Made by a program: the position numbers and the translations under genes. From Anaerolineae bacterium (GTDB lineage: Bacteria; Chloroflexota; Anaerolineae; UBA1429), in the NCBI GenBank assembly GCA_963675785.1, contig OY776562.1:704001-768000 (forward strand): a stretch of DNA of 64,000 nt, written 5' to 3'. Below, piece after piece: positions 2,442 through 46,943 of this stretch (position 1 is its first letter; every line of letters starts with the position of its first letter). Under the pieces are notes generated by a model. That model saw nothing but the letters and a program-made list of their open reading frames with translations, was not told the origin of the DNA and searched no databases.

Positions 2442-3554
2442 TCAGATGACCTCGGCGGGCGGCAAGTCGCACACCTCTTCCAGCGTGGTGGCGATGGCGT
2501 CGATCACTTTGAGGGAGACATCTGGTTCGGCCTCGGCATGCAGCATCAAGCCACCCTCGGGCAAGTAGAGCCCTTCGAATACCTCATGGATGTGATCTTG
2601 CACCTCTGCGGGTGAGGCAAAGGGAAACAATTGGCGGTCGAGATCCTGATTCAGTGCTACGCGCCCCATCGCCACTTGTTGCAGACCTTCCAGACCATTG
2701 GCCCGAATCTGCGGATTGAGCAGGGTTACGCCCGCTTCGATCAAGTCGGGGATGATCTCCAAAATATGCCCGTCGGTGTGCTGGCTAATTGGGATGCCGC
2801 GTTCGCGCATGGGCGCATACAGGTGCATGTAACTAGGCTTGATGTATTTGCGCCACATGCGCGGGCTCATGGGCAGCGATTTCTGCAGACCCAGGTCGCC
2901 AGCAAAAGACATATGTTCCGCGCCCATCTCGATGTACTTGTTGATGACCACCTGGTTATAGCCCTCTACCATGTCGATGAGCTTGAAAACGCGCGGGTCG
3001 CCGCTGCCTAGGTCCATCATCAGGTTGTCAAAGCCGTGCAGATAAAAGAGGTTCATGTACATGAACCCGTGGGGCAGCCCGGGGCCGGTGGCCAGGTCAC
3101 CACGCGCTTTGGCGGCTTCTATCTCGGCCTTGGCTTCAGCCCAGGGCCTGCGTGGTCCGAACCAGTCCTGCGTCATGGGGTTGGGCGGCGCATAGCTATC
3201 CAGGGCGGCCCAATCTTCCAAGGGGCCGCTGATGGCCATAGAATCGAGGCCGCGTTCACAGTTGTTCCAAACTACACCCCAGCAATCGATGTGTTCACCG
3301 AGTTCGTAGAGGGGATTTGTGCCGGGGTCGTCATAATCTTTGGTTCCGGCGGCAAAATCGGGCCACACGCGCGGGTGGGCTAACACAACGGCTTCCAGCT
3401 CTGCGCGGTATTTCATCCAGGTGGCCGGCATCAGGCTGAACTGGCATGGTGTCCAGTCAGGGTGGTCGAATTCGACCATCTTGATCCAGTTCAATGTGCG
3501 GGCATTGCGGCCCTCTCGGGATATGCTCAGCGGTCGCCGTTCTGTGTCTGACAT
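2442..3554 (-). CDS. uroporphyrinogen decarboxylase-like / MtaA-CmuA superfamily protein
   Basis: DCWGVVW, GDLGLQKSLPMSPRMWRKYIKP, HTDG, LNPQ, DLDRQ motifs. Start moved to the Met with an AGGAG RBS (ORF track start 3569). Confidence 0.75.
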   Translation of the reverse strand: MSDTERRPLSISREGRNARTLNWIKMVEFDHPDWTPCQFSLMPATWMKYRAELEAVVLAHPRVWPDFAAGTKDYDDPGTNPLYELGEHIDCWGVVWNNCERGLDSMAISGPLEDWAALDSYAPPNPMTQDWFGPRRPWAEAKAEIEAAKARGDLATGPGLPHGFMYMNLFYLHGFDNLMMDLGSGDPRVFKLIDMVEGYNQVVINKYIEMGAEHMSFAGDLGLQKSLPMSPRMWRKYIKPSYMHLYAPMRERGIPISQHTDGHILEIIPDLIEAGVTLLNPQIRANGLEGLQQVAMGRVALNQDLDRQLFPFASPAEVQDHIHEVFEGLYLPEGGLMLHAEAEPDVSLKVIDAIATTLEEVCDLPPAEVI

Positions 3555-4756: not shown

Positions 4757-5617
4757 TTGCGAACGTTCATGGATTGCTATGCTTGTTTTGTGGGCCAGGC
4801 TCTGGATGCTCTGCGTTTGGCTGGGGTCGAGGAATGCGTTCAGAAATCTGCCATGGAGAAGGTTCTGGCGTTGCTGCAGGGCCTGGAATTGACCACCACG
4901 CCGCCCGAGATCGGTCGTGACGTCCATGCCATCATCCGTAAAGTGACGGGGGTGGATGACCCTTACCTGAGCATCAAGACCGAAACCACTGGCATCGCCC
5001 TGGGGCTTTATCCTGCACTCAAAGAAAAGGTTGCGGTTTCGTCCGATCCGATAGATACGGCTATTCGTCTGGCTGTGGCCGGCAACATTCTCGATTCGGG
5101 TATCGCCAATCACACTTATGACATTATGGAGACCATCGAGCGGGCCTTGACGGACGATTTTGCCATTGATGATCGCCTCGCGTTGCGCCAGGCTTTTGAT
5201 AGGGCCGATTGGCTGCTCTATCTGGGCGATAACACTGGCGAAACGGTCTTTGACCGTATTCTTATCGAGACCTTGGCCATGCGCACCGTCTATGCCGTCA
5301 AAAGCGGTCCCATCCTCAATGATGCGACCCTGGCCGAGGCCCGCGATGCTGGGTTGGACGGCTGTGCCGAACTGGTGGAGACAGGGCTGCGCGCCCCTGG
5401 TTGCATCCTCGCCGATACTTCGGCAGCATTTCGCGAACTGTATGCTGCTGCGCCTCTGATCATCGCCAAGGGCCAAGGCAATTATGAGACGCTCAGCACT
5501 ACCAGTGATCCTCGTCTATTTCACTTACTTCAAGCCAAATGCCGCGTTATTGCTGCGGACCTGCGTGTTCCGCAATTCGGTCTTATCGTCGAGAGGTCTT
5601 TACGCAACCTTCATTGA
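4757..5617 (+). CDS. DUF89/ARMT1-like damage-control phosphatase
   Basis: N-terminal DCYACF, AGNILD, DNTGE, ILNDAT, AKGQGNYE, AKC. Confidence 0.85.
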   Translation: MRTFMDCYACFVGQALDALRLAGVEECVQKSAMEKVLALLQGLELTTTPPEIGRDVHAIIRKVTGVDDPYLSIKTETTGIALGLYPALKEKVAVSSDPIDTAIRLAVAGNILDSGIANHTYDIMETIERALTDDFAIDDRLALRQAFDRADWLLYLGDNTGETVFDRILIETLAMRTVYAVKSGPILNDATLAEARDAGLDGCAELVETGLRAPGCILADTSAAFRELYAAAPLIIAKGQGNYETLSTTSDPRLFHLLQAKCRVIAADLRVPQFGLIVERSLRNLH

Positions 5618-5699
5618 CATGACCTTTACGCTCACCTAAACTGCAAAAGATAGTTTTCACTGTTAGTTTGCTAACCTCACACAATAGGGAAGAGGCCTT

Positions 5700-8600
5700 A
5701 TGCCCAAAAGCCGCGGCATTCGTGTATTCGCTCGTTGTCTACTTGCTATCATCCTTTTCTCGCTGAGCGGTATGTCCGTTATGGCGGCTGGTGAAGAAAC
5801 TCCTGTTCCCTTGGTAGGATTATCAGGTAGTAACAGCGCTCTCATTGGTGAGAGCACGACTTTTTATGCCACCTTTGATAATACTTCTTCCGATTTGAAC
5901 GCTGTAGGCTATGGCCCCTTTATCGACATCGTTCTACCGACCAACGGTGCTGATGGCGTGGCGGGCACCGATATCGCCGACGGCCTTTCGTTCGTTAGTG
6001 CGACCTATGAGACGACTACTCTTGACCCCATCGTCATCGTGTTCGATGAGCTCGGGCAGGCTGAACACCCCCTGACCGGCGAGATCATTTCGGGCACACC
6101 CGGCGATGAGCTTGTGGTCTTTGAACTTCCTTTTGGCAGCTTTGTACCCGATCAGCCTTCTGTGCGCATTGCCATCCGTGCTTTGCTAAGTGAGTTTGCC
6201 GATCTGGATACTACACTTTATGTGACTTCTCGCGCCGGTTTCTACCTCGGCGCTGATCCTTTGAACAACCCCTCGACGGATGCACCCATCATCTCCGCCT
6301 GGTCTGATCCTGGCTTTGCCATGAGTCCCACCATTATGACCATCCATAAGGACTATATCGGGCCAGAGGACGAAACGGCTACTGGCCCCAACTGGGTGCG
6401 CCAGTATGAGATCAGGGTGAACATCGCCGATGGACAGCCGGTCTCGAATATCGAGTTATCTGATATTCTTCCGCCCGAGCTGGCCTATGTCTCGCTGGAT
6501 ACTGTGTCGCCTGCGGATTACACCCTTACGGCTGAACCGCCTTTGGCAGTTCCCTCCGAAAGCCCTACTAGCACCCTTAGCCTGACCTGGGAGGTCATCA
6601 CCGGCACGGGTTCATCTGCTGATATCACCGCTCGATTCTCTTTCTTTGTGCCCGAATATGACGCCTATGGCGACCCCATTCTGGATCCCCTGACTGGCGG
6701 CTGCACGACTATTTCCAATCAGGCGACGGCGAGCGGCACCTGGACGCCCATCGATGAGCGCGATGAAGAGGTTGTCCTCTCACAGCAATCGGCAGAGCAT
6801 GAAGCCGATTTCGAGGCCTGTGCTTTGGTCATCCAGAAAGATGTCTCCATCGTCAACGACCTTTTCACCAGCGGGGCTACCCCGGGAGACACACTCGGCT
6901 ATACCCTGCACATTCAGGCCTCGGATTATTACACCGTGGGCGGCGATGTCTCCTTTGTGGTCACCGATACCCTTTCTGACGGTCAGCTGTTTGCGTTTGA
7001 CAGCCTGAGTGGCGCTGATGCCAGTTATTCCATTGGGGATCGTGACGGCACAGCCACCGGCGTATTCACGGACGGCATCAATCTTGACGTGGATACCTCG
7101 CTGAACCCGCTTTATGGCACCAGCGGTGTCTGCGGAGGCGGCGAGACCATCCTTACCTTTGACCTGGGCACAGCTCTGGCCGCCAGTCTGACCCAGCCCG
7201 ATGCCCTTCTCACCGGTGGTTCTATTGGGCAGAGTGGCGATCCTTCTCAGGATCCGGCGTATCCCGCGCCTTGTGCACCAGCACAGGGTACTATTACCTA
7301 TCGCACAGTGATTCAAGAACAGTATGGTTGCACTGTGCCCTCTGGTGATCAGAGCATCGACCAGAACGACTATCTCGATAACGATGTCGATATCGTCGGC
7401 GGCGTTTACACAGGCGACCCCCTCACACTTACCGGCACCACTGGCGATGATAGCGCTGAACGTGTGGATTTAGTCGATGGCTCTATCTCCAAAGTAGTTT
7501 ATGCACGTAACGGCGTCATTGGCGATACGGGTCCCTTTGAGGCTGGTGATACCATTACCTATCGTATTCGATACAACCTGCCTACTGCCGATGTGGAAGA
7601 CCTCTCGCTCATCGACTTTTTGCCGTTACCCACGCTGCAGGTCAATGATTGGGATGCGGATAACACCACGGGCGATGCCGCGACCTGGATGTTTGATGAG
7701 GTGGTGGCTATTGATTCTGTGCCTGTCTCGGGCCACGCTTCCTACGGCCCAGCAGACACCTTCCACGAGATGTCGGGCGGCAACCCTTCGCCCGCGCCCG
7801 CCCCCGTGCTAACGGCAGATGCCTCGGGCAATAGCCTGACTTTTTACTATGGTAACCACGATATTGATAACGGTATTTCGGCTACCATCGACCTCTTGTT
7901 CACCGTTACCGTGCAGGACGATCCCTTTGCAGATGGCATGTACCTGACCAACCAACTGCAGGCAATAGAGCAAAACTCTTTCCTCGACGTGGTTACAACG
8001 ACCGACATCGTACAGATACAGTTGACTGGCCCCGAGCTCAATATTTACAAGGGCATCGTTTGGGCCAGCAATGGCGAACTCTCGCCTGCGACAGCCGCAC
8101 CTGTGGCTATGGATGTCGAAGCCTGCCCTGCCTTTAGCGAGGCCATTACTTCCGCGGGTTTGGAAACCAACCCCATTGATAGTGACCTTTCGGGCGTAGA
8201 TGGTGGCGATACCATTCGCTTTGCCATCGTGTTAGAGAATACCGGCACCGGTCCTTCTGGTGCTTTTGATGTCCAGCTCAGCGATGCCCTGCCGACTGGC
8301 ATCACGTCTGCTGATGTGCAAAACATCTGTGTCACCGATGGCGCAGGCACACCGCTTGCATATACCGAACTCGGTAGTGGCCTCTTTGATCTTGCTGGCG
8401 GTATCGAATTGACGGATGGCGCCGAGACTGGCGCTATCGGACCCTATTCCGAAGACGCCGGCACCAACATCGTCGTCGTTACCTATGATGTGGTCGTGCC
8501 AGCCTCTGCTGCTGTGGATTCTCTCTATGAGAACACTGCTTCCCTTGCGAACTATACCAACGTCGAGGGCGGCGAGGACTATATTGACAAATATGGCGTG

Positions 8601-11600
8601 GTGGAGGAGACGGCTTCTTGGGAGACGACCGATCCAACCGTCTCCAAGTCGTTGCTTTCTACCTCTGAGAGTCAGACATCCGGGAATAATGCGGTCATTG
8701 GCGAATTGGTGACTTATCAGGTGCAGATCGATCTGCCTGAAGGTACCACGCCCGATGCTGTGCTGGTGGACACCCTCGAAGCCGGCTTGGCTTTTGTCGA
8801 TGTGATCACGGTTACAGCGCCCGTGTCGATCACGACCGATTATGCCGGTAGTTGGGATGGCGTGGTCGCTGGTTCCTCTTTGGATAACGTGGGTACGGGA
8901 GATGCCAACGTCGACCGTCAACTCACTCTTTCTCTAGGTTCGCTGGTGAACAGCGACACCGACGACGAGACGACGGAATCTGTTACGGTGGAATATCGCG
9001 CCGTGGTGCTCAACACTCTGGCTAATGTTCGCGGTGTCTCTCGTGAGAACAGCGCCGTGCTTCAGTGGACCACCGGTTCCGATACGGCCGGCGCAGTCTC
9101 TGTAGTGGTGGTCGAGCCGCAATTCACGATTTCCAAGGATATGACGCCATCGACCGCTGATGCAGGCGATCAAGTGGTGATAACGCTTACTATCGCCAAT
9201 CCCTCGGCCTCCAGCCAGGTCGATGCTTATGATGTCTCTCTGGAGGATATGCTGTCGACCGGCCTGACTTTTGTAGGCTTTGGTGCGCAGACTGGCCTGA
9301 CGCCAGATAGTTTGACCGAAACAGACGGCCAAATCGATGCGACTTGGTCGGTGTTCCCTCTGAATCAAACGGCTACCGTCGTGTTTACCGCGACGATGGA
9401 TGCCGATGTCTCTGCCGGCCAAATCATCCAAAACGGTGCGACAGTTGAATGGGCTAGCAAAGCCGATGCTTCGACCGCTGGCGCGAATCCTCTTGGCGTG
9501 CGCCGTACTGGCGATACCAGCGATGCGGGTGCTTTGGCGAACGACTATCTTACCACTGCAGCGGACACCACCAGCGTTCCAGTAGCGATCGCCAAAACGC
9601 TCATCAGCACCTCTGAGAGCGAGACCACCGGCACCTATGTGGCTGTGGGCGAAATCGCGCGCTATCGCTTGGTAGCCACCATCCCCGAAGGCGAAACGGC
9701 TAGCCTAGTCATTCAAGATCGTATTCCCACGGGTCTTGGCTACCTGGATGACGGCACGGCTACGGCCGCCATCATTTCGGATGATGCTATGACCAGCACC
9801 CTGGCCGGCTCATTGGAATTGACCAGCATCTATACCACGGGTAGCAGTGTAGTGACGCCGGTGGTCGTATTGCCCGACACCATGGCTTCAAGCTCGCTTT
9901 CCGACACCGCTGCTGATACCTATAGTTCGGGCAGCGATGTCTATTTCCACTTTGGTACAGTAACCAACGACGATCGTGATGAAAACGCCGAATACATCGT
10001 CATCGAGTTCAACGCCCAGGTGCTCAACACCAGCACCGCTCAAGAGGGTGTTTCTCTTTCCAATAATGCCCGAATATACACTGGCAGCACCGTTGTGGCT
10101 ACGTCAGGCAGTGTGGCCGTGCGTGTGGCCGAACCCGTATTGACTGTCAACAAACAAATCATCACTGCTGCACCCTATGATGCGGCCGATGAGCTGGTTT
10201 ACGAGGTTGTGGTGACCAACAGTTCGACAGCGGGCAACGGCCGCATCGCCCATGAAGTTGTCATCAGCGATACCATCGATGCAGATACCACGTTGGTTTC
10301 GGCGGTGATGAGCAATGGCAATCCCGTTTCGGATATGGGCGCCTATGTACAGAGCAGCGTGGATTCGCTCGCTCCGGGTGAGAGCGTGACACTCACGGTG
10401 ACCGTTGACATCAGTGATGCCGTGGCGCCAGCAACTGCCGTTGCCGATACAGCCACTGCCAGTTGGACCAGCCTGCCTGCTTCTGGAACCACCTCTAACC
10501 CTACAGGCTCGGTTGTACTCGGAAGTCAGGGCGCGGCGAATGGCGAGCGCGATGGTTCGGGCGGTGTGAATGACCATATCACCAATGATAGTGTGTCGGT
10601 TTCAGTGGACAATGTGGCCCCCACCAAAGTGCTGCTTGGCACTTCGGAAGACGATACCAGCGGCACCAATGTCGCCATCGGCGAATTAGCTACGTTTGAG
10701 ATCGAGGTGGTGATTCCCGAGGGAGCAACTTCGGTGATGACCATCACCGACGCCATTCCCAATGGCCTGTGGGTTGATCTCTCAACGGTACAGCTCAATT
10801 TCGGCACCTCGGTTACGGCTGTGAGCAGCGATGTTTCCGGTGGTGGCAGTAGTGGTGCCGATCTGGTAGTAGCTTTGACGGATTTGGTGGTTGAGGCCAA
10901 CAATGTGGCCGATGACAACTTGCTGACCATCACCTACACGGCCCATGTGGTGGATGAATCCGGCATTTCTGGCATTACCGTGCCTACGCAAACCGTGCTT
11001 AGCAATGGTGTCAGCGTACAAGTGGGTTCTTCGCCTGTGGTGAACGCTACACCCGTCAGCTTGCGTGTGGTTGAACCGCGCCTTCAGATCGTCAAAGAAA
11101 TGTCACCCGATCCCATTGCCCTCGATGATACCTTGGTCATGACGGTGACGGTTCGTAATACCGGTCTGGCTTCAGCGTATGATCTTGCGGTGAGTGATCA
11201 GGTGCCGGGCACCTATGTCGAGAATCTGACCCTGACCAATGTTTCGGCAGGCGCCTCACCTTCCACTTCTGTGGTAGGCGATGATCTGCTGGTGACTTTG
11301 ACCCAGGATACCCTCGTGGCCGGAGCAGAAATGAGCTTTGTCGTTACCGGCACGGTCAAGGCTGGTGTGCCCTATCAAACGGTGATAACCAACTCGGCCA
11401 CCGTAACCCAAGCGACGACATTGCCTGGTGACGATCCGCTGGAACGCACTGAACCCGAGGTTAGTGATGCTGAGAACGTAACCGTCGGTCGCCCCGATAT
11501 CGTGGTGACCAAGACGGATAACGTCACCATTGCGGCACCTGGCGATACCTTGAACTATGTGATCACCGTGCGTAACGCAGGTAATGTTCGCGCCACTGGC

Positions 11601-14600
11601 ATTGTGGTTACTGATACTCTGCCAGCATTGGCGTCTTATGTGGTCGATTCGGCCAGCGATAGCGGCACCTATGATGTAGATGCTCGCCAGCTCAATTGGG
11701 CCGTTGCTCTATTGGCCCCCGGTGGGTCGGTCAACTTGACCTACTCTGCGTTGATGGATGCTTATGTCTCCGAGTTTGCCGAGAGTATTACCAATACGGT
11801 CTCGGCGGCAGACGATGGCGTTCGCGGCGAAGATCCTAATCCTGATGATAACCATGACACCGACATAGACACTATCAATGCTACGGCTGTGGCTGAGGTC
11901 ACCAAAGAGGCCCTCACCGAGAGCCCCGTGGCGCCAGGCGACCCCGTGAGCTACTCGGTTGAGGTGACCAATACCGGCGACCGCGAAGCCGAGATGGTGT
12001 TGGTTGATGCTTTGGATGATGTCGATCTCTCACTGGTGGTGGGCACCGTTGCGACCACCCAGGGAACGGTGGTGCTGGGCAACACGCCTGGCGATACAAC
12101 GGTTCGCGTTGAACTGGGCACGGTAGCGCCTACTGATATCATTACGGTGACCTTTGGCGGCCTTACAGCCGATCCAATCACCAAGGCTGTGGCTCAGGTC
12201 GAGAACCAAAGCACAGTTTCGGGTAATAGTATCACCACGGTTGATTCGGACGATCCCACCACGCCTGCGGCAGATGATCCTACCATAGTGCCGGTGAACG
12301 CTTTGGCCCAGGTGGAAAGCACCAAGGCCGACCTGCTCTTGCTCGACGGCAACTCGGACGGCATCGTCAATCCGGGCGATACGCTACGCTACACGGTCAT
12401 CATCAGCAGTACCGGCAACATGCCGGCGAACGGCGTGATCTTCAGCGACACGCCTGATAGCAACACAGCCCTTGTGGTTGGCAGCGTTACCACGACGCAG
12501 GGTTCGGTGACTATGGGCAACAATGCAGGGAATAGCACAGTTTCTGTTGCGCTGGGGCAACTGCCTGCTGGTTCTACCGCCACCATCACCTTTGATGTGA
12601 TCGTCGATAATCCGCTTCCTGCGGACATCGAGTCCGTGGCCAATCAGGGCCTCGTCTCGGGGGACAACATCACCCCGGTTTCTACCGATGATCCCGACAC
12701 GCCTGATGAGGGCGACGAGACCGTGACGCCTGTGGTAACTACCCATACATTGGTTAGCACCAAGACTGTAGCTCTGTTGACCGACTCGGACAGCGACGCT
12801 CAGGTCTCGCCGGGCGACGTGCTCGAATACACCGTGGTAGTCACCAATACAGGCGATATTGCCGTGACCTCATTGGTCATCAGTGATGTGCTTGATAGCA
12901 ACCTGGCGTTGGTGGTGGGCAGTGTTGCCACGACGCAGGGCACGGTGACCAATGGGAACACCTTGGGGGATACCGATATCGAGGTGACTTTGGGGGAACT
13001 AGCCGGCGGCAATGCTTTTGCTACGGTCACCTTTGCGGCAACGATCGTGAATCCGCTGCCTGAGGGAGTGGACACGGTGACCAACCAGGCTTTGGTGCAA
13101 TCCAACGAGGTCGCTGATGTGCTTACCGACGATCCGACTACGGATATGCCGGATGATCCCAATGTGACGCCTGTAACAGCCGCACCGGAAATCATGGTAA
13201 CAAAGGATGATGGTGTGAGTCTCGACGATACCCTTGTACCCGGTGATGTCTTTACTTATACGCTAACTGTTGAGAACGTGGGTAACCAAGATATTGCCCT
13301 AGTTCTGGACGATGATATAGAAGATACCAACCTGTCTTTGGTGGCTGGCACTGTAACGACTACTCGAGGCACGGTGCTGTTGGGCAACAGTTCAGATGAC
13401 GCAGTGCAGGTCGATTTGGGGACGATGTCGCCGAGCACTGGCATCATCACCGTTACTTTCCAGGTGCAGGTGAATGATCCTATCGTCGGTGGTGTGGATT
13501 CCGTGGCTAACCAGGCCTTGGTGTCTGGTGAGGGTGTTGAGGAATCCTCGAATGATCCCGAAACGCTCGCCGAGGACGACCCAACCGTGACCTATGTCGA
13601 TGCGGCGCCGGCAGTGGATATGCTCAAATCAGCGGCCTTGCTCAATGATGTCGATACTAACGGTGTGGTCTCGCCGGGCGATGTGCTGCGCTATACCCTC
13701 CTTACCGAGAACAGTGGTAACGCCAGCGCCATGAACCTTACGCTGGAGGACACACCGGATGCGAATTCGACGCTGATCACGGGTACCGTGACCGCCACAC
13801 AGGGAACCGTAACCACAGGGAACGGTGCTGGCGATGTGACAGTGGCCGTGAGCGTGCCCGAGTTAATGGGCAGCGAATCCTTTACGGTGACCTATGATGT
13901 GATGGTTAACTATGCCTTTACCGAGGCCATCACGCTAACCAACCAAGCTCTGATCGATTTCGATGAGACCACCGAGCCTATACCCAGCGATGATCCCGGA
14001 ACGCCCGAAGAGGATGATCCCACGTTGGTGCCGGTGGATATCACACCAGCGCTGATGCTTACCAAGACGGATAGCCTTCTTCTCGACGAGAACGAGGATG
14101 CCGCCTTGAACCCCGGCGAGACGCTGGTCTATACCATCGTCCTGACCAACAAAGGTTTTCAACCCGCCTCGGCGGTGGTTTTGACCGACACCATCGATTC
14201 GGGTGCTGTGCTGGTAACAGGTACGGTGACAAGCACGCTGGGTACTGTAGTTGAGGGCAATGGCGCCGAGGATACGGCTGTGCGCGTCGAGTTGGATACA
14301 CTAGAGGCCCAAGCCGTTGTGACGGTGAGCTTTCAGGTGACGCTACCCTTCGATTGGCCGTTGGATGTGACCGAAATCGCCAACCAAACAGTGCTAACTA
14401 GTGCTGAGACAGAGCCGCTTGTTAGCGATGACCCCGAAACCGACGAGGCCGATGATCCAACGGTAACGCCGATAGTGGCCCAGCCGGATGTGTTGGCTTT
14501 CAAAGTAGATGAACTGCTCGATGATGTCGCTCAGGATGGGGCGATCAGCGCGGGTGATGCCCTACGCTACACCATCACACTGAACAATGTGGGCACTGGG

Positions 14601-15257
14601 CCAGCGAGCAGCGTGGTTTTGAGTGATACATTGGATACCAATACCTCACTCATTGCGGGTTCGGTAACGACGACCCAGGGTATGATCAATATTGGCAATG
14701 GCCAGGCTGATACGGCAGTGCAAGTGACTATCGATGAGCTTTTGCCAGGAACAGTGGTTACCGTTACTTATGATGCGCGTATTGCCAGCGAACTTGCGCC
14801 GGGCACGGTGCTGAGCAACCAGGCCGTGATCTCGAGCCCTGATTTTCTCACAAAGTACAGCGATGATCCTGCGGCAGGTGGCGATGAAGATCCGACCGAG
14901 ACGCCGGTGGTGCCACCTACAGCAATCGACTTGCTCTCTTTTGGGATCACAGGGGTGCATGGTAGCCAGGTCGATCTGGCCTGGACGACGGCTACTGAAG
15001 TGGACAACCAGCGTTTTGAGATCTGGCGGGCCGATTCATCTTCGTTCTCCGAGGCCACACAGGTGGGCACGGTGATGGCTCAAGCCGCCGCAGCGAATGG
15101 TGCCAGCTATGCCTGGAGCGATACGGACGTGCCCGATGGTGCCTGGTGGTACTGGCTTGTTGATGTCGATTCTGAGGGTGCCAGCCAGGTACATTATGAT
15201 AGAGTCCGAGTGGCTGTTGTGGGACGCCAGTTTTACCTGCCCTTGTTGTTCAACTAG
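5700..15257 (+). CDS. giant secreted adhesin/fimbrial-like protein, 3185 aa, with DUF11 / isopeptide-forming Ig-like repeats and a C-terminal YLPL tail
   Basis: Signal peptide MPKSRGIRVFARCLLAIILFSLSGMSVMAA; many K..GD/E..Y....N.G......D.LP....N.A domains; very acidic, T/V/D-rich; ends FYLPLLFN. Confidence 0.85.
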   Translation: MPKSRGIRVFARCLLAIILFSLSGMSVMAAGEETPVPLVGLSGSNSALIGESTTFYATFDNTSSDLNAVGYGPFIDIVLPTNGADGVAGTDIADGLSFVSATYETTTLDPIVIVFDELGQAEHPLTGEIISGTPGDELVVFELPFGSFVPDQPSVRIAIRALLSEFADLDTTLYVTSRAGFYLGADPLNNPSTDAPIISAWSDPGFAMSPTIMTIHKDYIGPEDETATGPNWVRQYEIRVNIADGQPVSNIELSDILPPELAYVSLDTVSPADYTLTAEPPLAVPSESPTSTLSLTWEVITGTGSSADITARFSFFVPEYDAYGDPILDPLTGGCTTISNQATASGTWTPIDERDEEVVLSQQSAEHEADFEACALVIQKDVSIVNDLFTSGATPGDTLGYTLHIQASDYYTVGGDVSFVVTDTLSDGQLFAFDSLSGADASYSIGDRDGTATGVFTDGINLDVDTSLNPLYGTSGVCGGGETILTFDLGTALAASLTQPDALLTGGSIGQSGDPSQDPAYPAPCAPAQGTITYRTVIQEQYGCTVPSGDQSIDQNDYLDNDVDIVGGVYTGDPLTLTGTTGDDSAERVDLVDGSISKVVYARNGVIGDTGPFEAGDTITYRIRYNLPTADVEDLSLIDFLPLPTLQVNDWDADNTTGDAATWMFDEVVAIDSVPVSGHASYGPADTFHEMSGGNPSPAPAPVLTADASGNSLTFYYGNHDIDNGISATIDLLFTVTVQDDPFADGMYLTNQLQAIEQNSFLDVVTTTDIVQIQLTGPELNIYKGIVWASNGELSPATAAPVAMDVEACPAFSEAITSAGLETNPIDSDLSGVDGGDTIRFAIVLENTGTGPSGAFDVQLSDALPTGITSADVQNICVTDGAGTPLAYTELGSGLFDLAGGIELTDGAETGAIGPYSEDAGTNIVVVTYDVVVPASAAVDSLYENTASLANYTNVEGGEDYIDKYGVVEETASWETTDPTVSKSLLSTSESQTSGNNAVIGELVTYQVQIDLPEGTTPDAVLVDTLEAGLAFVDVITVTAPVSITTDYAGSWDGVVAGSSLDNVGTGDANVDRQLTLSLGSLVNSDTDDETTESVTVEYRAVVLNTLANVRGVSRENSAVLQWTTGSDTAGAVSVVVVEPQFTISKDMTPSTADAGDQVVITLTIANPSASSQVDAYDVSLEDMLSTGLTFVGFGAQTGLTPDSLTETDGQIDATWSVFPLNQTATVVFTATMDADVSAGQIIQNGATVEWASKADASTAGANPLGVRRTGDTSDAGALANDYLTTAADTTSVPVAIAKTLISTSESETTGTYVAVGEIARYRLVATIPEGETASLVIQDRIPTGLGYLDDGTATAAIISDDAMTSTLAGSLELTSIYTTGSSVVTPVVVLPDTMASSSLSDTAADTYSSGSDVYFHFGTVTNDDRDENAEYIVIEFNAQVLNTSTAQEGVSLSNNARIYTGSTVVATSGSVAVRVAEPVLTVNKQIITAAPYDAADELVYEVVVTNSSTAGNGRIAHEVVISDTIDADTTLVSAVMSNGNPVSDMGAYVQSSVDSLAPGESVTLTVTVDISDAVAPATAVADTATASWTSLPASGTTSNPTGSVVLGSQGAANGERDGSGGVNDHITNDSVSVSVDNVAPTKVLLGTSEDDTSGTNVAIGELATFEIEVVIPEGATSVMTITDAIPNGLWVDLSTVQLNFGTSVTAVSSDVSGGGSSGADLVVALTDLVVEANNVADDNLLTITYTAHVVDESGISGITVPTQTVLSNGVSVQVGSSPVVNATPVSLRVVEPRLQIVKEMSPDPIALDDTLVMTVTVRNTGLASAYDLAVSDQVPGTYVENLTLTNVSAGASPSTSVVGDDLLVTLTQDTLVAGAEMSFVVTGTVKAGVPYQTVITNSATVTQATTLPGDDPLERTEPEVSDAENVTVGRPDIVVTKTDNVTIAAPGDTLNYVITVRNAGNVRATGIVVTDTLPALASYVVDSASDSGTYDVDARQLNWAVALLAPGGSVNLTYSALMDAYVSEFAESITNTVSAADDGVRGEDPNPDDNHDTDIDTINATAVAEVTKEALTESPVAPGDPVSYSVEVTNTGDREAEMVLVDALDDVDLSLVVGTVATTQGTVVLGNTPGDTTVRVELGTVAPTDIITVTFGGLTADPITKAVAQVENQSTVSGNSITTVDSDDPTTPAADDPTIVPVNALAQVESTKADLLLLDGNSDGIVNPGDTLRYTVIISSTGNMPANGVIFSDTPDSNTALVVGSVTTTQGSVTMGNNAGNSTVSVALGQLPAGSTATITFDVIVDNPLPADIESVANQGLVSGDNITPVSTDDPDTPDEGDETVTPVVTTHTLVSTKTVALLTDSDSDAQVSPGDVLEYTVVVTNTGDIAVTSLVISDVLDSNLALVVGSVATTQGTVTNGNTLGDTDIEVTLGELAGGNAFATVTFAATIVNPLPEGVDTVTNQALVQSNEVADVLTDDPTTDMPDDPNVTPVTAAPEIMVTKDDGVSLDDTLVPGDVFTYTLTVENVGNQDIALVLDDDIEDTNLSLVAGTVTTTRGTVLLGNSSDDAVQVDLGTMSPSTGIITVTFQVQVNDPIVGGVDSVANQALVSGEGVEESSNDPETLAEDDPTVTYVDAAPAVDMLKSAALLNDVDTNGVVSPGDVLRYTLLTENSGNASAMNLTLEDTPDANSTLITGTVTATQGTVTTGNGAGDVTVAVSVPELMGSESFTVTYDVMVNYAFTEAITLTNQALIDFDETTEPIPSDDPGTPEEDDPTLVPVDITPALMLTKTDSLLLDENEDAALNPGETLVYTIVLTNKGFQPASAVVLTDTIDSGAVLVTGTVTSTLGTVVEGNGAEDTAVRVELDTLEAQAVVTVSFQVTLPFDWPLDVTEIANQTVLTSAETEPLVSDDPETDEADDPTVTPIVAQPDVLAFKVDELLDDVAQDGAISAGDALRYTITLNNVGTGPASSVVLSDTLDTNTSLIAGSVTTTQGMINIGNGQADTAVQVTIDELLPGTVVTVTYDARIASELAPGTVLSNQAVISSPDFLTKYSDDPAAGGDEDPTETPVVPPTAIDLLSFGITGVHGSQVDLAWTTATEVDNQRFEIWRADSSSFSEATQVGTVMAQAAAANGASYAWSDTDVPDGAWWYWLVDVDSEGASQVHYDRVRVAVVGRQFYLPLLFN
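11890..14912 (+). repeat. seven tandem ~144-aa intragenic repeats (DUF11-like, DxDxDG and SDDPxTP loops)
   Basis: Recurrent PGD/E.L.YT, V.G(S/T)VTTTQGTV..GN, NQ(A/G/T)LV, SDDP.TP..DDPTV.PV at about 430-bp period; boundaries approximate. Confidence 0.85.
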
Positions 15258-15287
15258 TACGCAGCTCATCATAGAAGGAAGCAAACC

Positions 15288-15914
15288 ATGAAGCGTATGA
15301 TTCTGATACTGTCGATACTAGTAGGGATGCTCATTGCGGCACAGCCGGTAGCAGCTGGCTTTACGCCGACGCCCGTTGCTCCCACTGTGGCGCCAACGGT
15401 TACACCAATCCCCACTGGCGTCGTTTCCGATTCTTCCGAGAATTGCGCGGCGCAACTGGTGGTTGAGTTGCTTGGCGATGTTCCTGAGGGTCTGGTGGTT
15501 TCGGGCTGGCTGGGTAGCGACAGCAGCAATCAGTCCGAACCGACTGGCTCTATGGCTTTTGAGAGGCCCTGGTTGGGGCAGATTTTGGGTATCCCCATCT
15601 CACCCAAAACAACCTACCAAGTTTGGGGTTGGACAGAACAGGGTGGGTGGATATACTTTTTCGAGGTGACTGCTGGTGGTTGTGTGGATGTGTTGGGGCA
15701 GCACGCGTTCTACACTGCTACGTCAACGGCCACGCCCGTTCTTGCGCCAACGCCAGCCGAATTGCCCGAGACAGGTGGTATGGCACCATCTATCCCCTGG
15801 GGGCAAATTGCTTTGGCTGTGACGGGTGTAGGTGTGCTCTGGCAGGGTATTGCTTCTGGTACGCTCCTACCCAACCGGCGCTCCAAGCGCTCAGAACGTT
15901 ATCGCGATCAATAA
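15288..15914 (+). CDS. LPXTG-anchored (LPETG) small surface protein with Pro/Thr-rich linkers
   Basis: Signal peptide; PT-rich segments; LPETG followed by a hydrophobic helix and the basic tail RRSKRSERYR. Confidence 0.8.
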   Translation: MKRMILILSILVGMLIAAQPVAAGFTPTPVAPTVAPTVTPIPTGVVSDSSENCAAQLVVELLGDVPEGLVVSGWLGSDSSNQSEPTGSMAFERPWLGQILGIPISPKTTYQVWGWTEQGGWIYFFEVTAGGCVDVLGQHAFYTATSTATPVLAPTPAELPETGGMAPSIPWGQIALAVTGVGVLWQGIASGTLLPNRRSKRSERYRDQ

Positions 15915-16009
15915 CGCGGGATTGCAGAGAGGCTCTCTGTGCTCTCTGTTTCTAGTGTATGGCCAGGGGGGACAGCAATTCTCGCGGATTGCCATGGCCT
16001 GCACAATTG

Positions 16010-16043
16010 GGCGAGCCGTCGGATTGTCTGACGGCTCGCCTTT
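16010..16043 (+). terminator. GC-rich hairpin with a short T run just upstream of the C25 peptidase RBS
   Basis: GGCGAGCCGTC(GGA)-TTG-(TCT)GACGGCTCGCC-TTT; GGAG RBS at 16051. Confidence 0.45.
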
Positions 16044-16059
16044 GCTATAGGGAGATACG

Positions 16060-18783
16060 TTGAAAAGACTTGTAGTCATCCTCTTGTTGATGCTTGTCAA
16101 CGGGAGTGCCCTGGTGAGTGCTGCTGTGCCTGTCGCACAGCCAGCTTCAGCGGGACGCACGGTAATCGTATACCAGGATGGCCTGACGGTCTCTTGGAGC
16201 ACCCCCGATCTTGCCATTGCTGCCGAAGAAGATAGCATAGTAAGCGTCCATGCTGGCGAATGGGCAGTGGATACCGTTGAGAATAGCAGTGTATCCTTGC
16301 CCTACGATGCCCTCCTTATCGCCCTTCCTCCCAATATAGAGCCTCAATTGACGATAATCTATCCCGATGCGCAGTATGTTACTTCCCTAGCGCTCTCTGC
16401 ATCAACTGACACGAGTTCCCCCGTTACTTTTGTCGAATTAGGCACCTCGGCGGGCGTGCGGCTGGCTTCGCTGCGCTTTGATTGTGCCACTGTACAAGAG
16501 GGAGAACTATTCTACTGGCCCTCGGCCTCGGTGGAGATATCCTGGAATACTGCTGTGGTGGATGAAGGGCAGCCTGCGCCTGCCTGGGTGGCCGATTCGG
16601 TGGTAAATCCCCAACATGCGCTTGTTGCGCGTGAGGCCAATATCATTCAAACGGCCATGCCCAGTGTTGAGGGCGATCTCTATGCCCAGGTGGACGAGGC
16701 CGGCTTGTACAGCCTGGATGCAGCCCTTTTGGTTGCGCAAGGTTGGGAGAGCGTCGATCTGCGTCAGGTCTGTGTTTTCCATGGCGACGAGCAGGTGGCG
16801 ACCCTCATCGAGGACGATGGCGATATCATGCTGGAGAGCGGTGAACGTATCCTCTTTTATGCCGAACCCGAACACAATCGCTATGCACTGGATGACGCCT
16901 ATCGCATCACGCTGGATGCCAGCGCCTTGGCAATGGACACACGCTCCGCCTCATTGGGCACACTGCCAGAGGCATCATTACGGCGTAGCGTGCTCTTGGA
17001 GCAGGATTTACTCTATACCCCGGACTGCCTGTGCGGCAGCTTGCCCGCTGGCCATGATGGTGATATGTGGGCCTGGGCCTATTTGCGCGTGCCCGATGCG
17101 ACCGCTTTCGAGACATCGGTCGATCTCGATGATGTGGCTGTAAATGCCTCCGGTGTCGTGACGGCCTGGTTCATCGGTGGCACCTCGGTGCTCGATTACC
17201 CTGATCATATGGTGGAATTGTGGATCAATGGCGTGCGCGTAGGGCAGGGTAGCTTTGATGGCAAGACTCTCTACGCACTGGAAGTAGACATCCCCTCTGG
17301 CGTATTGGTACAGGGTGAGAACACCTTGCGCGTGGTGCTGCCCGGGAGTGGTGCTTCGGTTGAGGCTTGCTGGCTGGACGCCATCCAGCTCTCTTACAGT
17401 TGCGATGCTTTCTCTGTTGGTGGACAGCTCATCGTCGAGGGGGAAGAGTCAGTCTCTACCTATCAGGTAATCCTTGGTTCCGGCGATCTTTTATTTGACA
17501 TAACAGATGTATTCACGCCTGTTCAATTGGATACAGGCGCATCTTCAGGAAGCGTGTACTTGACCGATACAACCGGCGGGCAGCGTTATCTGTTGGTGGA
17601 TGAGGATGCGTTTCTTACGCCTGTGCTACGTCAAGCGCAGCAGGTGGAGGATGAATCGGGGAACTGCCTCATCATCACTCAGGCAGAGCTAATGCCCGCT
17701 GCACAGCGTTTGGCGGCTTGGCGAACTGCACAAGGCTATGGGGTGGTGCTAGTCAACGTGCAGGCTATCTATGATACCTTTGGCAGCGGTGTTGCCGAGC
17801 CAGAGGCCATCCGCGCTTATTTGCAGTATGCCTATGAAGAATGGCCTGCTGACATAGCTGGCGTCACACTGTTTGGTGGGGGCACCAGTGATCCCCGCCA
17901 GAACGTGACGGACATTGAGACTTTTATCCCAATCTATCTAGCAGATGTCGACCCCTGGGCTGGCGAGACCGCGGCGGATAACCGTTATGCTTGTGTGGAT
18001 GGTGCTGACAGTCTTCCTGATCTGGCTTTGGGGCGCCTGCCGGCCTGGTCGTTGGCTGAGGCGCAGACAATGGTGGATACGCTCGTCGCTTACGAGAGTG
18101 ATGGAGACCGTCAGCCATGGCATGGTTCGGCCGTGCTGGTTTCCGATGATCAAGATACAGCCGGAGACTTTGAGGCTATCTCTGAACAGTCGGCGGCGCA
18201 GCTGCCACAGGGAACTGTGGCGCAAACACTTGTGCTAGAGGGGGCCAGTGCCTCATATTCTGATGGCACTGAGGCGGATGCGGCCTCTATTCGGCAAGCG
18301 CTGGTTGCGGCCTGGCAGCAGGGGATTGCCTTTGTGCAATTTTCCGGGCACTCTTCCTGGCAACAGTGGGCTATCGAATCGGTGCTGCACCTGGATAATT
18401 TGCCCTGGCCTAATACTATTGGTCAGGTGCCCGTAGTGTTGGAGCTCACTTGCTTTACGGGGGCGTTTCAGCGCCCCGAAGCCACGCTGGATCGAACCCT
18501 GGTCTCCAGCGGGAAAGCCATAGCGGTTTTTGGCCCTTCGGGTTTAGGCATCAACACCGGTCATGACCAACTGGCGCAGGGTTTTGTGGCGGCTCTGTAC
18601 GACCAAGAGCAGATGTTGACGCTGGGCCAGATAGCCAATGCCGCCCGGTTGCAATTGGCTGCTTCCGGACGGCATCTAGAGTTATTGGATACCTATACTT
18701 TACTAGGTGATCCGCTGGTGGTTCCCCATACAGGTGCGGGTAGTCTACCCTATGCTTGTTACCTTCCTCTGAATTTGCGCTAG
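16060..18783 (+). CDS. C25 family cysteine peptidase (gingipain/PorU-like), secreted, with a C-terminal YLPL tail
   Basis: Signal peptide; IYDTFG..AIRAYL..A, DNRYA....PDLALGRLPA, FSGHSS (His), LTCFTG (Cys), YTLLGDP; ends CYLPLNLR. Confidence 0.85.
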   Translation: MKRLVVILLLMLVNGSALVSAAVPVAQPASAGRTVIVYQDGLTVSWSTPDLAIAAEEDSIVSVHAGEWAVDTVENSSVSLPYDALLIALPPNIEPQLTIIYPDAQYVTSLALSASTDTSSPVTFVELGTSAGVRLASLRFDCATVQEGELFYWPSASVEISWNTAVVDEGQPAPAWVADSVVNPQHALVAREANIIQTAMPSVEGDLYAQVDEAGLYSLDAALLVAQGWESVDLRQVCVFHGDEQVATLIEDDGDIMLESGERILFYAEPEHNRYALDDAYRITLDASALAMDTRSASLGTLPEASLRRSVLLEQDLLYTPDCLCGSLPAGHDGDMWAWAYLRVPDATAFETSVDLDDVAVNASGVVTAWFIGGTSVLDYPDHMVELWINGVRVGQGSFDGKTLYALEVDIPSGVLVQGENTLRVVLPGSGASVEACWLDAIQLSYSCDAFSVGGQLIVEGEESVSTYQVILGSGDLLFDITDVFTPVQLDTGASSGSVYLTDTTGGQRYLLVDEDAFLTPVLRQAQQVEDESGNCLIITQAELMPAAQRLAAWRTAQGYGVVLVNVQAIYDTFGSGVAEPEAIRAYLQYAYEEWPADIAGVTLFGGGTSDPRQNVTDIETFIPIYLADVDPWAGETAADNRYACVDGADSLPDLALGRLPAWSLAEAQTMVDTLVAYESDGDRQPWHGSAVLVSDDQDTAGDFEAISEQSAAQLPQGTVAQTLVLEGASASYSDGTEADAASIRQALVAAWQQGIAFVQFSGHSSWQQWAIESVLHLDNLPWPNTIGQVPVVLELTCFTGAFQRPEATLDRTLVSSGKAIAVFGPSGLGINTGHDQLAQGFVAALYDQEQMLTLGQIANAARLQLAASGRHLELLDTYTLLGDPLVVPHTGAGSLPYACYLPLNLR

Positions 18784-42912: not shown

Positions 42913-43752
42913 TCATTCCTCGGCTTTCTCGCCGTTATTGACTGGCTCCTCATAGGCAATCTTTAGCGCTTGTTGCGATACCGTACTATACACTTTTGCA
43001 AGCCTTGCCATCAAGCTGCTGTCATTGATGAATCCCGGGCGCCCAAGTAGTTTGATGATCTGCATTCTAATCTCGGGCCCGTGTACGCGAATGTGCACAT
43101 CTGTGCCTTCAGGGCCCATCTCCCAATACGAGTCAATACATTCTTCGAGCGGAGGTTCGTAGGCCATGTCCGTCAAAGCGGCGCGTGCCTCTGATTTCTC
43201 CCCGTCGTTGGTCCCCCGCAATTCGCGCAGTGCCGCAATGATCTGTTCGCGGTTTCTGCCCCGCAGTTTGAACAAGAGATATGGGTCTTCGTCGAGCAAG
43301 TCACCAAAGGCGATACATGCTGCGGCTACATGCCGGCAGGGCACTGACCAGTTCGGCCCGCTGCATTCAGAGCCAATGTCACTCCGTTCAGAGGGTAACA
43401 ACGAGACGCCCTGCGCCTCAAAAATATCTTCAATATCGCGCGGTATCTCACCGTTCAGCAGGTGAGCAGAAAAACTGGCCTCTTCGGACATGGCTGCAAT
43501 GGCTTGTTCCCACACGTTGTCCCGAAAGGTCTGTACGCTGATGATGACGTGAAAGGTTTCTTCGTTCGGTTCGCTCACATCGGCTTCAAAGCGGCCGACG
43601 TCCACAACTAGATTCTTGACACGTCCGGCGCGAACATAGCGCATGCGCCCTGTGGATAGCAGGCTATTGCTAACCCATCCTTGCAGGGCTTGAAGCCACT
43701 TGCCAGACCACAATGTTTTATAATGCGTTCTGCCCATGTCCATGCTTGGCAT
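42913..43752 (-). CDS. SWIM zinc-finger family protein (SNF2 partner)
   Basis: GR.RY.R.GRV, LL.GE.P, C-S-G-P-x4-PCRH, DPYLLFKLRG. Confidence 0.85.
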   Translation of the reverse strand: MPSMDMGRTHYKTLWSGKWLQALQGWVSNSLLSTGRMRYVRAGRVKNLVVDVGRFEADVSEPNEETFHVIISVQTFRDNVWEQAIAAMSEEASFSAHLLNGEIPRDIEDIFEAQGVSLLPSERSDIGSECSGPNWSVPCRHVAAACIAFGDLLDEDPYLLFKLRGRNREQIIAALRELRGTNDGEKSEARAALTDMAYEPPLEECIDSYWEMGPEGTDVHIRVHGPEIRMQIIKLLGRPGFINDSSLMARLAKVYSTVSQQALKIAYEEPVNNGEKAEE

Positions 43753-46700: not shown

Positions 46701-46943
46701 CGATGGAAGCAGAGCAACGCGCGTGAGGCGCTGGGCACCCTGCCAGGCAATGCTCGGCACATAGTGCGACAGCAGATCCGCAATCTCGATAGTCGTCGCG
46801 CCGTACGGATGACGTAGAATGCGAGGTGTTTTGTTGTGTTGTGCGGGCAGCTCACGCCGAGCCCGCTCTGTCCAAACAAAGAAAAGGCCATCGGTTTGGC
46901 CGTCTCTGTCAGTTACCCAGGTTCCATGCAATACAGCTCGCAT
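43752..46943 (-). CDS. SNF2-family helicase/ATPase
   Basis: LRPYQ, LADDMGLGKT, DEAQ, TGTP.ENR, SGK, DRWWNPAVENQATDRAYRIGQ. Confidence 0.95.
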   Translation of the reverse strand: MRAVLHGTWVTDRDGQTDGLFFVWTERARRELPAQHNKTPRILRHPYGATTIEIADLLSHYVPSIAWQGAQRLTRVALLPSREQSPIVPGWLAADNASPDPDTEPILAPWRVEGIGVSVLDMLRVLTVLPAMQNGSQNDHKLGEDLRYWGLVAKFGLELLARERFLPGMQKNGDAYGAIWLPYINDENDRERFTLLMKAMPPVCRAVVRETANDAREVVPRPYTVLSSFIENLVDSAVRDWAYASPNAAEFGLAQRTRRVRTSRVDSAWWQALYADDNTMAVPEAKRGELDRFQQSWRSWTYPSQQVEHFDFKLCFRLEAPDYDLESSEAHWRLEYLFQSVKDPSLLVPVHDVWQGQIAPGGFLDHSFENAQERLLAGLGIAAQYSTAIQRSLRKEKPESATLSAQEAFRFLRETAQLLQEKGFAVMVPPWWNRSDARLSVRAKLKGNMIEPQQKGMLSMDSLVEYDWELALGDEVLTKEEFERLAQLKTPLVQVRGRWVLLQPDQVEAAIAFWEKQQQRSSIELHEALGLALGVEDELDGLTVSAIEVDGWLASLLSQLDSGQELPELNTPEDFVGELRPYQKRGLSWLAFLRHWHLGACLADDMGLGKTIQAIALVLHERKNGGGENPTLLVCPTSLVGNWKREIQRFAPDLNVMVHHGTGRAEGENFIQQSLSNDIVVSTYGLVRRDLEDLRQVRWANVILDEAQNIKNPYTKQARAVRLLDSDYRIALTGTPIENRLSELWSIISFLLPGYLGSLESFRREFAVPIERFQDEAASEKLRILVRPFVLRRVKTDPQVIQDLPEKFEYKVYCNLTREQASLYQAVVQNGLSQLNQDSKDMSGIRRRGMVLTMLTRLKQICDHPALYLADGSASASRSGKLNRLTEMLEEVLAVGDRALVFTQFAQMGFVLQRHLQEHFGQEVLFLHGGTPQRQRDHMLERFQEDERAPSIFVLSLKAGGLGLNLMRANHVFHYDRWWNPAVENQATDRAYRIGQTQNVQVHKFICPGTLEERIDTLIESKRELAENVVGSGEGWLTELSTDELKDVILLRSESIDDELGDD

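Follow-up and report, generated by a model that had tools for sequence, protein, structure and literature searches.

Three genes for secreted proteins at one locus

The 64,000-nucleotide stretch analyzed here (the window; G000:C1:704001-768000) belongs to the 3.22-Mb, single-contig genome (G000; completeness, 94.8%) of an Anaerolineae bacterium of the phylum Chloroflexota and carries, on its forward strand, three co-oriented genes specifying a giant adhesin, a small stalk protein with a sortase-type sorting signal, and a PorU-like cysteine peptidase of family C25. This locus is a single instance of a module found widely among the Anaerolineae. In the module, the C25 gene is specifically tied to an FN3-like domain at the C-terminal end of the adhesin, and not just to the short tail that follows this domain and also ends the peptidase. 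The initial annotation of the window had recognized the three genes (5700-15257, 15288-15914, and 16060-18783, all +) and the endings of their products, FYLPLLFN, LPETG-transmembrane (TM)-basic, and CYLPLNLR; the FN3-like domain had escaped it. The open reading frames (ORFs), signal peptides, and translations agree with this description, and its proposal that the three genes form one unit is borne out by the recurrence of the module in other Anaerolineae loci.

The adhesin (5700..15257, +; 3185 aa) has a signal peptide and combines, according to Pfam and NCBIfam, RrgB-type isopeptide domains (TIGR04226; E 3.5e-50, 4 stretches), DUF11 repeats (TIGR01451; E 8.8e-84, 10 stretches by NCBIfam and 9-10 overall), and DUF7619. 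Both repeat types that define the DUF11/isopeptide-domain surface adhesins are therefore present. Its last ~100 residues ahead of the tail constitute the FN3-like domain (aa ~3073-3173; 14916..15218, +), as judged from an alignment of 55 sequences of this C-terminal domain (A2), AlphaFold2, and Foldseek. The YLP-box-type tail FYLPLLFN follows (15231..15254, +), identified by its sequence and by the genome-wide tail count described below.

The 208-aa stalk protein (15288..15914, +) consists of a signal peptide, Pro/Thr-rich linkers, a small domain, and the sorting signal (15762..15911, +), in which LPETG is followed by a hydrophobic stretch and then by NRRSKRSERYRDQ. No Pfam or NCBIfam family matched this protein. 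LPXTG, a hydrophobic segment, and a basic tail are the hallmarks of Gram-positive sortase substrates, and neither the adhesin nor the peptidase has such a signal. The window contains no sortase gene, as stated initially, but a search of the genome found one, its only one, ~2 Mb from the locus (G000:C1:2714846-2715529; PF04203, E 3e-22), together with a few LPXTG-type candidates. Thus, the LPETG signal itself stands, whereas its assignment to a special system gives way to that of an ordinary sortase-type substrate in a genome that encodes a sortase. The gene just downstream of this sortase gene, outside the window (L114; G000:C1:2714191-2714793, -), specifies a 200-aa secreted protein of no family that ends in ILPATGK, i.e., an LPXTG motif with one residue after it and no TM segment.

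The peptidase gene (16060..18783, +) begins with a TTG start codon and encodes a 907-aa protein with a signal peptide and a C25 domain (PF01364, E 6.4e-74). Its best named relatives in NCBIfam are the PorU models (NF033707 PorU, 200.6 bits; NF052324 PorU2, 103.5 bits, below the cut-off of 450 bits), and its sole solved relative is PorU (PDB 6ZA2, E 1.1e-10), to which homology extends over peptidase residues 419-885, i.e., ~470 residues. The PorU-like identity proposed for this enzyme is therefore sound, and so is the claim that its catalytic residues are intact: His764 (FSGHSS; 18349..18351, +) and Cys798 (LTCFTG; 18451..18453, +) are invariant in the eight aligned C25 orthologs from which conservation was read (8/8) and align with the GH and TC of PorU, respectively. 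The protein ends in the YLP-box-type tail YLPLNLR (18760..18780, +). It has no TM anchor, as claimed, and the accompanying statement that it lacks an LPXTG motif requires the minor correction that VPHTG occurs 20 residues before its end. The gingipain-type propeptide (PF08126) had no match in the peptidase at E up to 0.01 in Pfam searches, whereas Propeptide_C25 is annotated on its relatives P0005 and P0013.

A second, weak C25-like protein is encoded outside the window (L007; G000:C1:1978776-1980512, -; 578 aa; PF01364, E 5e-7). It has a signal peptide, several predicted C-terminal TM helices, and no YLP tail. Proteins of this type seem not to follow the tail, since hits of similar size occur in the YLP-poor genomes G025, G030, G032, G064, and G080.

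An FN3-like domain beside the C25 gene

To chart the conservation of the locus, one-genome-per-species contigs were scanned with a C25 alignment, which yielded 80 loci (79 scorable), nearly all from Anaerolineae, Anaerolineales, Thermoflexales, Caldilineaceae, Promineifilaceae, or Ardenticatenaceae by record title. BLASTP with the adhesin's last 125 residues recovered 54 proteins in 50 of the 79 loci (E 1e-10 to 5e-24; 29-44% identity), and the genes of 40 of these 54 proteins lie directly upstream of the C25 gene. A lack of association between C25 genes and such adhesins in other genomes, which the initial annotation had named as grounds for abandoning its proposal, is not what we found: among the 66 loci in which the upstream side is assessable (>600 nt upstream of the C25 gene), 49 hold the FN3-like domain. 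Since the proteins carrying this domain range from ~330 to >3300 aa, conservation beside the peptidase lies in the domain and not in the adhesin body.

The remaining components of the locus recur less regularly. An LPXTG-TM protein is encoded within two genes of the C25 gene in 17/79 loci, compared with 3/514 genes elsewhere, and a sortase homolog lies beside the C25 gene in 15/79 loci, in contrast to its position ~2 Mb away in the source genome. The order domain protein-LPXTG stalk-C25 peptidase is found again in G088 and G172, two of the three such gaps that were read. In both, the gene in the gap specifies a signal peptide, a long Pro/Thr repeat, LPVTG or LPITG, a TM helix, and a basic tail, and two shorter gaps between domain protein and C25 contained no stalk-type gene. 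The LPXTG stalk and the sortase are recurrent extras of the module, and conservation of the stalk is confined to its architecture. One of the 80 loci (L065), a C25 ortholog with the tail FLPVINR, lies on a contig of a metagenome-assembled genome titled Cellvibrionaceae; this contig may be misbinned, because its title is the only non-Chloroflexota one in the set.

Co-occurrence was scored in 251 genomes of the class with a completeness of at least 90%, taking E up to 1e-20 as the threshold for a C25 ortholog. The domain was found in 162 genomes and the C25 ortholog in 169, with 156 genomes holding both, 6 the domain only, 13 C25 only, and 76 neither; related genomes are not independent, so this 2x2 table overstates the association and its Fisher value is not a probability. 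Within the mixed families f1 (4/9), f4 (7/10), and f23 (3/6), the domain and C25 occur in exactly the same genomes. Furthermore, the two are fused in at least three proteins. They share one frame in a 1102-aa protein (G016:C37; junction read in L104) and in a 902-aa protein (G192:C14), and the distant C25 protein P0012 carries the FN3-like domain N-terminal of its peptidase domain. Neighborhood, phylogenetic profile, and fusion thus agree on the link between domain and C25. A literature search found no report of a link between an FN3-like domain and a PorU-like peptidase in Chloroflexota; the tail itself has already been catalogued by NCBI.

In alignment A2, the domain is marked by a nearly invariant P-T-A just before its first strand, followed by the motifs W-x-T-x-x-E-x-D-N-x-G-F and WWYWL-x-D-V-D, and then by the tail. 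AlphaFold2 predicts a beta sandwich (pLDDT 87.3, pTM 0.76), with P-T-A and the tail in lower-confidence, non-strand segments. Foldseek searches of the PDB returned generic FN3 domains, the best being the N-terminal FN3 of the pectate lyases Pel3 and PelI (E ~2e-4), and a profile search against PDB sequences likewise gave only a pectate lyase (E 0.73). Neither Pfam nor NCBIfam has a model matching the domain itself in its 55 members, and TIGR04183, the C-terminal domain (CTD) of type IX secretion system (T9SS) cargo, was matched by none of these 55 at E up to 1. The possibility that the domain is a diverged T9SS CTD was dropped, as Foldseek gave generic FN3 domains and no T9SS CTD among the listed matches. 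A complex prediction for C25 residues 40-907 (A1) and the adhesin domain (A2) gave a score of 0.00 and a mark of 0.32; it was run without controls and weighs neither way on binding.

The source genome has one copy of the domain. Its profile matched 77,673 of 1.84 billion cluster representatives at E up to 1e-3, 14,587 at 1e-10, and 185 at 1e-30. In the top 150 matches, the usual arrangement is one copy at the very C-terminal end of a protein, whose length varies from 126 to >4000 aa; tandem arrays are sometimes seen. The tail is one of several endings that follow it. An ending composed of 'APTAVTL', a TM helix, and an Arg cluster is present in L095-L098, L105, and L106, and a Pro-rich stretch in L099 and L102; such alternatives are frequent where a genome has many copies of the domain (at least 17 scored). 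In the 'APTAVTL' proteins, P-T-A-V therefore stands both ahead of the domain and at the opening of the alternative ending. A single pre-anchor domain is thus combined with C-terminal endings of several kinds.

The YLP-box tail

The tail was counted across the genome in 2571 gene-like ORFs. YLPL occurs 21 times, and five of these occurrences start 7-8 residues from the C-terminus, compared with ~0.49 expected within the last 12 residues; this positional enrichment supports the earlier view of YLPL as a shared tag. The five tailed proteins are 902-3185 aa long and all have signal peptides; besides the adhesin and the peptidase, they are a 1192-aa protein with SpoIID and amidase domains, a 1191-aa S8/PA subtilase, and a 902-aa Big_12/cadherin protein. 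A close variant, F[VI]PL or MLPL and then [VI][LM][KR], terminates another seven secreted proteins, namely, an S8 subtilase, two beta-helix proteins, three tandem LVIVD propellers, and a 590-aa protein without a family. A looser regular expression gave 44 matches versus 24-30 at control positions and is too noisy, so that only the clear F[VI]PL...[KR] endings were used from it. At least 12 secreted proteins of the genome therefore carry the tail or a close variant. The proposed association of YLPL with the peptidase holds insofar as adhesin and peptidase both bear the tail, but not as an exclusive one, since at least 10 of the carriers are encoded away from the peptidase. The LVIVD propellers among them, encoded outside the window (L110-L112; G000:C1:1468103-1474676, -; 671, 637, and 746 aa), end in F[VI]PL[VI][LM]R and have weak, sub-threshold matches to a model of the PorZ N-terminal propeller.

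Contrary to the initial annotation, the tail cannot be called undescribed, because NCBIfam already curates the YLP-box as a putative sorting motif (NF050076 sort_motif_YLP and NF053834 ultrashort_CTERM). The motif is a [YF]-L-P-hydrophobic core at the extreme C-terminus of Chloroflexota signal-peptide proteins, and the tails described here have this core in this position. Two differences were noted. Four of the five YLPL tails of the source genome lack the terminal Arg or Lys, and neither model matched any of the five (0/5; 30-residue pieces at E up to 10 and six-frame genome searches), a negative to be read knowing that HMMER filters may drop such short pieces. The only matches of the two models in the six-frame searches were a 34-aa frame and an internal site. 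The same models matched the tails of 13/55 (NF050076) and 6/55 (NF053834) relatives of the adhesin domain at E up to 1. Tails that escape models matching those of their relatives point to a divergent form of the catalogued YLP-box. The NCBIfam entries name neither a mechanism nor an enzyme that reads the motif, and the term 'YLP-box' was not found in a literature search.

Orthologs and neighbors of the peptidase were scored with a strict definition of the tail, [FYW][LIVM]P[LIVMFST]. It ends 60 of the 73 complete C25 orthologs and the products of 35 of the 54 same-strand genes directly upstream of C25, compared with 9/514 genes more than two genes away and 2/47 adjacent downstream genes. That the locus is a coincidence of three unrelated secreted-protein genes with chance tails is an idea to which the shortness of the tails (7-8 residues) and their failure to score with the NCBIfam models lend something. 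It is contradicted by the enrichment of YLPL at C-termini (5 versus ~0.5 expected), by the retention of the tail on most orthologs, and by a gene order kept in 49/66 loci, and we consider it almost certainly wrong.

Across genomes, canonical tails were counted with the DNA pattern [YF]-L-P-h-h-x-[RK-like]-stop and, as a control, its reversed form. Thirty genomes with C25 and the domain gave 293 matches versus 96 for the control, and 30 genomes with neither gave 113 versus 118. Three genomes of the latter set show an excess, G027 (14 versus 1), G009 (13 versus 9), and G052 (21 versus 11), and all of them (3/3) hold a C25-family gene above the Pfam cut-off; among the other 27, three do (3/27), and 20/27 have no match at E up to 0.001. 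This grouping by C25 family was made post hoc, with the counts already seen. The C25 genes of G027 have box-like tails at their end.

A canonical YLP-box also occurs inside the peptidase in 10 of 78 C25 orthologs (L014, L018, L022, L041, L056, L067, L068, L071, L081, and L086) and in the C25 proteins P0005, P0009, and P0010. It reads ...LP[YH][RQ]xYLPLVxR... and lies each time in the same inserted loop, some 440-530 residues into the protein and flanked by the N-terminal region on one side and, on the other, by the sandwich ahead of the catalytic domain. The internal box goes without a terminal tail in P0005 and P0010. Judging from its sequence and placement, the internal box could be a self-processing site or a mere binding motif that tolerates an internal position.

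These observations bear on the chain of events put forward initially, in which the YLPL tail is the recognition signal of the C25 enzyme and this enzyme cross-links the adhesin to the LPETG protein as a wall-anchored base. The covariation of tail and C25 family across genomes, the internal box, which would fit self-processing, and the recurrence of stalk and sortase genes in the module are all in its favor. Nevertheless, the stalk lies within two genes of C25 in only 17/79 loci, and that of the window has no sequence relatives there; tails that stop at the last box residue would leave no leaving group for a sortase-like acyl transfer past the box; and the feature specifically associated with C25 neighbors is the FN3-like domain, not the tail alone. 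This chain is possible but quite unlikely, and less well supported than either the module that we favor below or its main rival.

In that main rival, C25 is one more YLP-box cargo without a sorting role, forming with the domain protein a two-part surface unit (e.g., a binding protein combined with a protease that serves feeding or matures adhesins), and the YLP-box is read by another factor or binds the envelope non-covalently without any enzyme. The peptidase indeed ends in the tail itself, as do most of its orthologs, and the carriers encoded away from C25 are as diverse as S8 subtilases, beta-helix proteins, LVIVD propellers, SpoIID/amidase, and Big_12 proteins. Moreover, YLP tails occur in G009 and G052, where the only C25-like gene is distant and has no tail of its own, and many tails end exactly at Arg or Lys, with nothing left after the box to be cut. 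What this explanation accommodates less readily is the 1:1 adjacency of C25 with one C-terminal domain, whatever the rest of the protein, the exact co-loss of both within families f1, f4, and f23, and the existence of C25-domain fusions. Adjacency, co-loss, and fusions exceed what a co-expressed cargo pair needs, but they would also fit a stable non-catalytic partnership. We regard it as a serious contender, albeit a rather doubtful one.

A candidate surface-display module without type IX secretion

PorU removes the CTD of T9SS cargo and acts as a sortase-like transpeptidase. The module described here shares with the PorU/T9SS pathway of Bacteroidota a C25 catalytic domain with aligned His and Cys, a C-terminal tag of one kind on both the enzyme and its presumed cargo, and, on cargo proteins that are otherwise unrelated, a beta-sandwich domain of ~100 residues at the C-terminal end. 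It differs in that the cargo domain is not TIGR04183 but a generic FN3 fold, that the tag proper is a tail of 7-10 residues, and that the source genome lacks the secretion machinery itself. Searches of the genome for SprA and GldM and for the T9SS CTD (TIGR04183/Por_Secre_tail) gave no match, but these negatives are unvalidated, as the control genomes were silent too. An Omp85 search was also negative, with a control that was positive in 7/7 diderm genomes, so that the bacterium probably has no outer membrane. Within the limits of the silent SprA, GldM, and CTD controls, the genome thus appears T9SS-free, as had been claimed, and without T9SS markers and Omp85 a T9SS cannot explain the peptidase.

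Other lineage-specific pairs of a C-terminal tag and a dedicated enzyme are exosortase/PEP-CTERM, archaeosortase/PGF-CTERM, and rhombosortase/GlyGly-CTERM, whose tags consist of a motif, a TM helix, and a basic cluster and whose enzymes are polytopic membrane proteins. The logic of these systems is the same, in that many unrelated secreted proteins share a C-terminal tag for which there is a dedicated processing enzyme. In contrast, the tag described here lacks a TM helix, and its candidate enzyme, a C25 peptidase, is secreted.

The explanation that we favor, tentatively, as the likeliest single one is a T9SS-independent surface-display module in which the YLP-box would tag proteins for the surface in general, FN3-like domain proteins would be the substrates of the PorU-like enzyme, and sortase and stalk would supply a wall anchor in some lineages. 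From the observed gene anatomy, catalytic residues, conservation of module and tail, neighborhood, co-occurrence, and fusions, and from the lack of outer-membrane and T9SS markers, we infer its enzymatic steps, cleavage site, and acceptor as follows. Adhesin, stalk, and peptidase, in all of which signal peptides are seen, would be exported by Sec, and the single sortase of the genome would fix the Pro/Thr-rich stalk to the wall via LPETG. The YLP-box would serve as a general surface-targeting or retention tag on the at least 12 secreted proteins that carry it. The C25 enzyme would be a dedicated processor of FN3-like domain proteins that recognizes the domain, cuts at or near the conserved P-T-A junction or at the tail, and, by analogy with PorU, may hand the cargo on, with the stalk as a candidate acceptor.

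A more specific version is a two-enzyme relay in monoderm Chloroflexota, in which the FN3-like domain marks the cargo and the C25 enzyme cuts at P-T-A and joins the cargo covalently to the free N-terminus of the sortase-fixed, Pro/Thr-rich stalk on peptidoglycan. We consider this relay unlikely; if it is true, the sortase reaction of the PorU type would predate the T9SS and be more general than it.

Several points weigh against the favored module. The peptidase remains below the PorU equivalog cut-off (200.6 versus 420 bits for NF033707), and the fold of its presumed cargo domain is generic FN3, with no specific likeness to T9SS CTDs in Foldseek searches. Conservation is incomplete: 17 of the 66 assessable loci have no domain protein beside C25, 13 genomes have C25 without the domain, 6 have the domain without C25, and the association in the 2x2 table is inflated by relatedness, as noted above. 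BLAST of the stalk against the neighbors in the 80 loci and its own genome found no relatives. The FN3-like domain elsewhere precedes endings of other kinds, with either a TM helix and an Arg cluster or Pro-rich stretches, and other enzymes may serve the domains that have them. The tails of G009 and G052, with their distant C25-like genes, tell in the same direction, and the tail pattern is insensitive, as ~10 of the 30 C25-positive genomes show no excess and the source genome gives 4 matches versus 2 for an out-of-frame control despite its at least 12 tails. A peptidase tagged like its neighbors also fits a mere passenger. Finally, the support for the module is genomic and comes from sequence comparison.

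Pairs of a C-terminal tag and an enzyme, such as sortase/LPXTG, exosortase/PEP-CTERM, and PorU/T9SS-CTD, are known to organize bacterial surfaces. Chloroflexota are abundant in sludge, sediments, and soils, and the attachment of their surface proteins is little understood. Gene order, co-occurrence, and fusion tie a PorU-type peptidase to a huge, unmodelled domain family in bacteria that probably lack an outer membrane and a T9SS. If C25 processes the domain proteins, PorU-like chemistry would not be confined to type IX secretion, the YLP-box, listed by NCBI and so far unexplained, would gain a context, and a testable enzyme-substrate pair would be at hand, i.e., the C25 enzyme and a domain-plus-tail reporter with a Cys798Ala control.

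Further features of the window

A promoter-like site (TTGACA-17-TAAACT; 5614..5642, +; 10/12 consensus matches) precedes the adhesin gene; it is a consensus match only, with 10 such sites in the region versus 8.9 expected. A hairpin with a weak T-rich tail lies between the stalk and C25 genes (window 15923-15941, +), 9 nt past the stalk stop codon and 119 nt ahead of the C25 start. Transcription running on into the peptidase gene may be attenuated by this hairpin, again judging from a consensus match alone. The locus is flanked upstream by a gene for an ARMT1-like phosphatase and downstream, on the other strand, by genes for a GNAT protein, a trypsin-like peptidase, and a fucosidase, which are unrelated housekeeping or catabolic genes. 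Elsewhere in the window, a 1145-aa protein with a reverse-transcriptase domain (RVT_1, E 7.5e-9; 48984-52421, -) is encoded in an island of low G+C content (41% versus ~55%), with a gene for an SNF2-family helicase nearby (43752-46943); this island may be a mobile or defense element.

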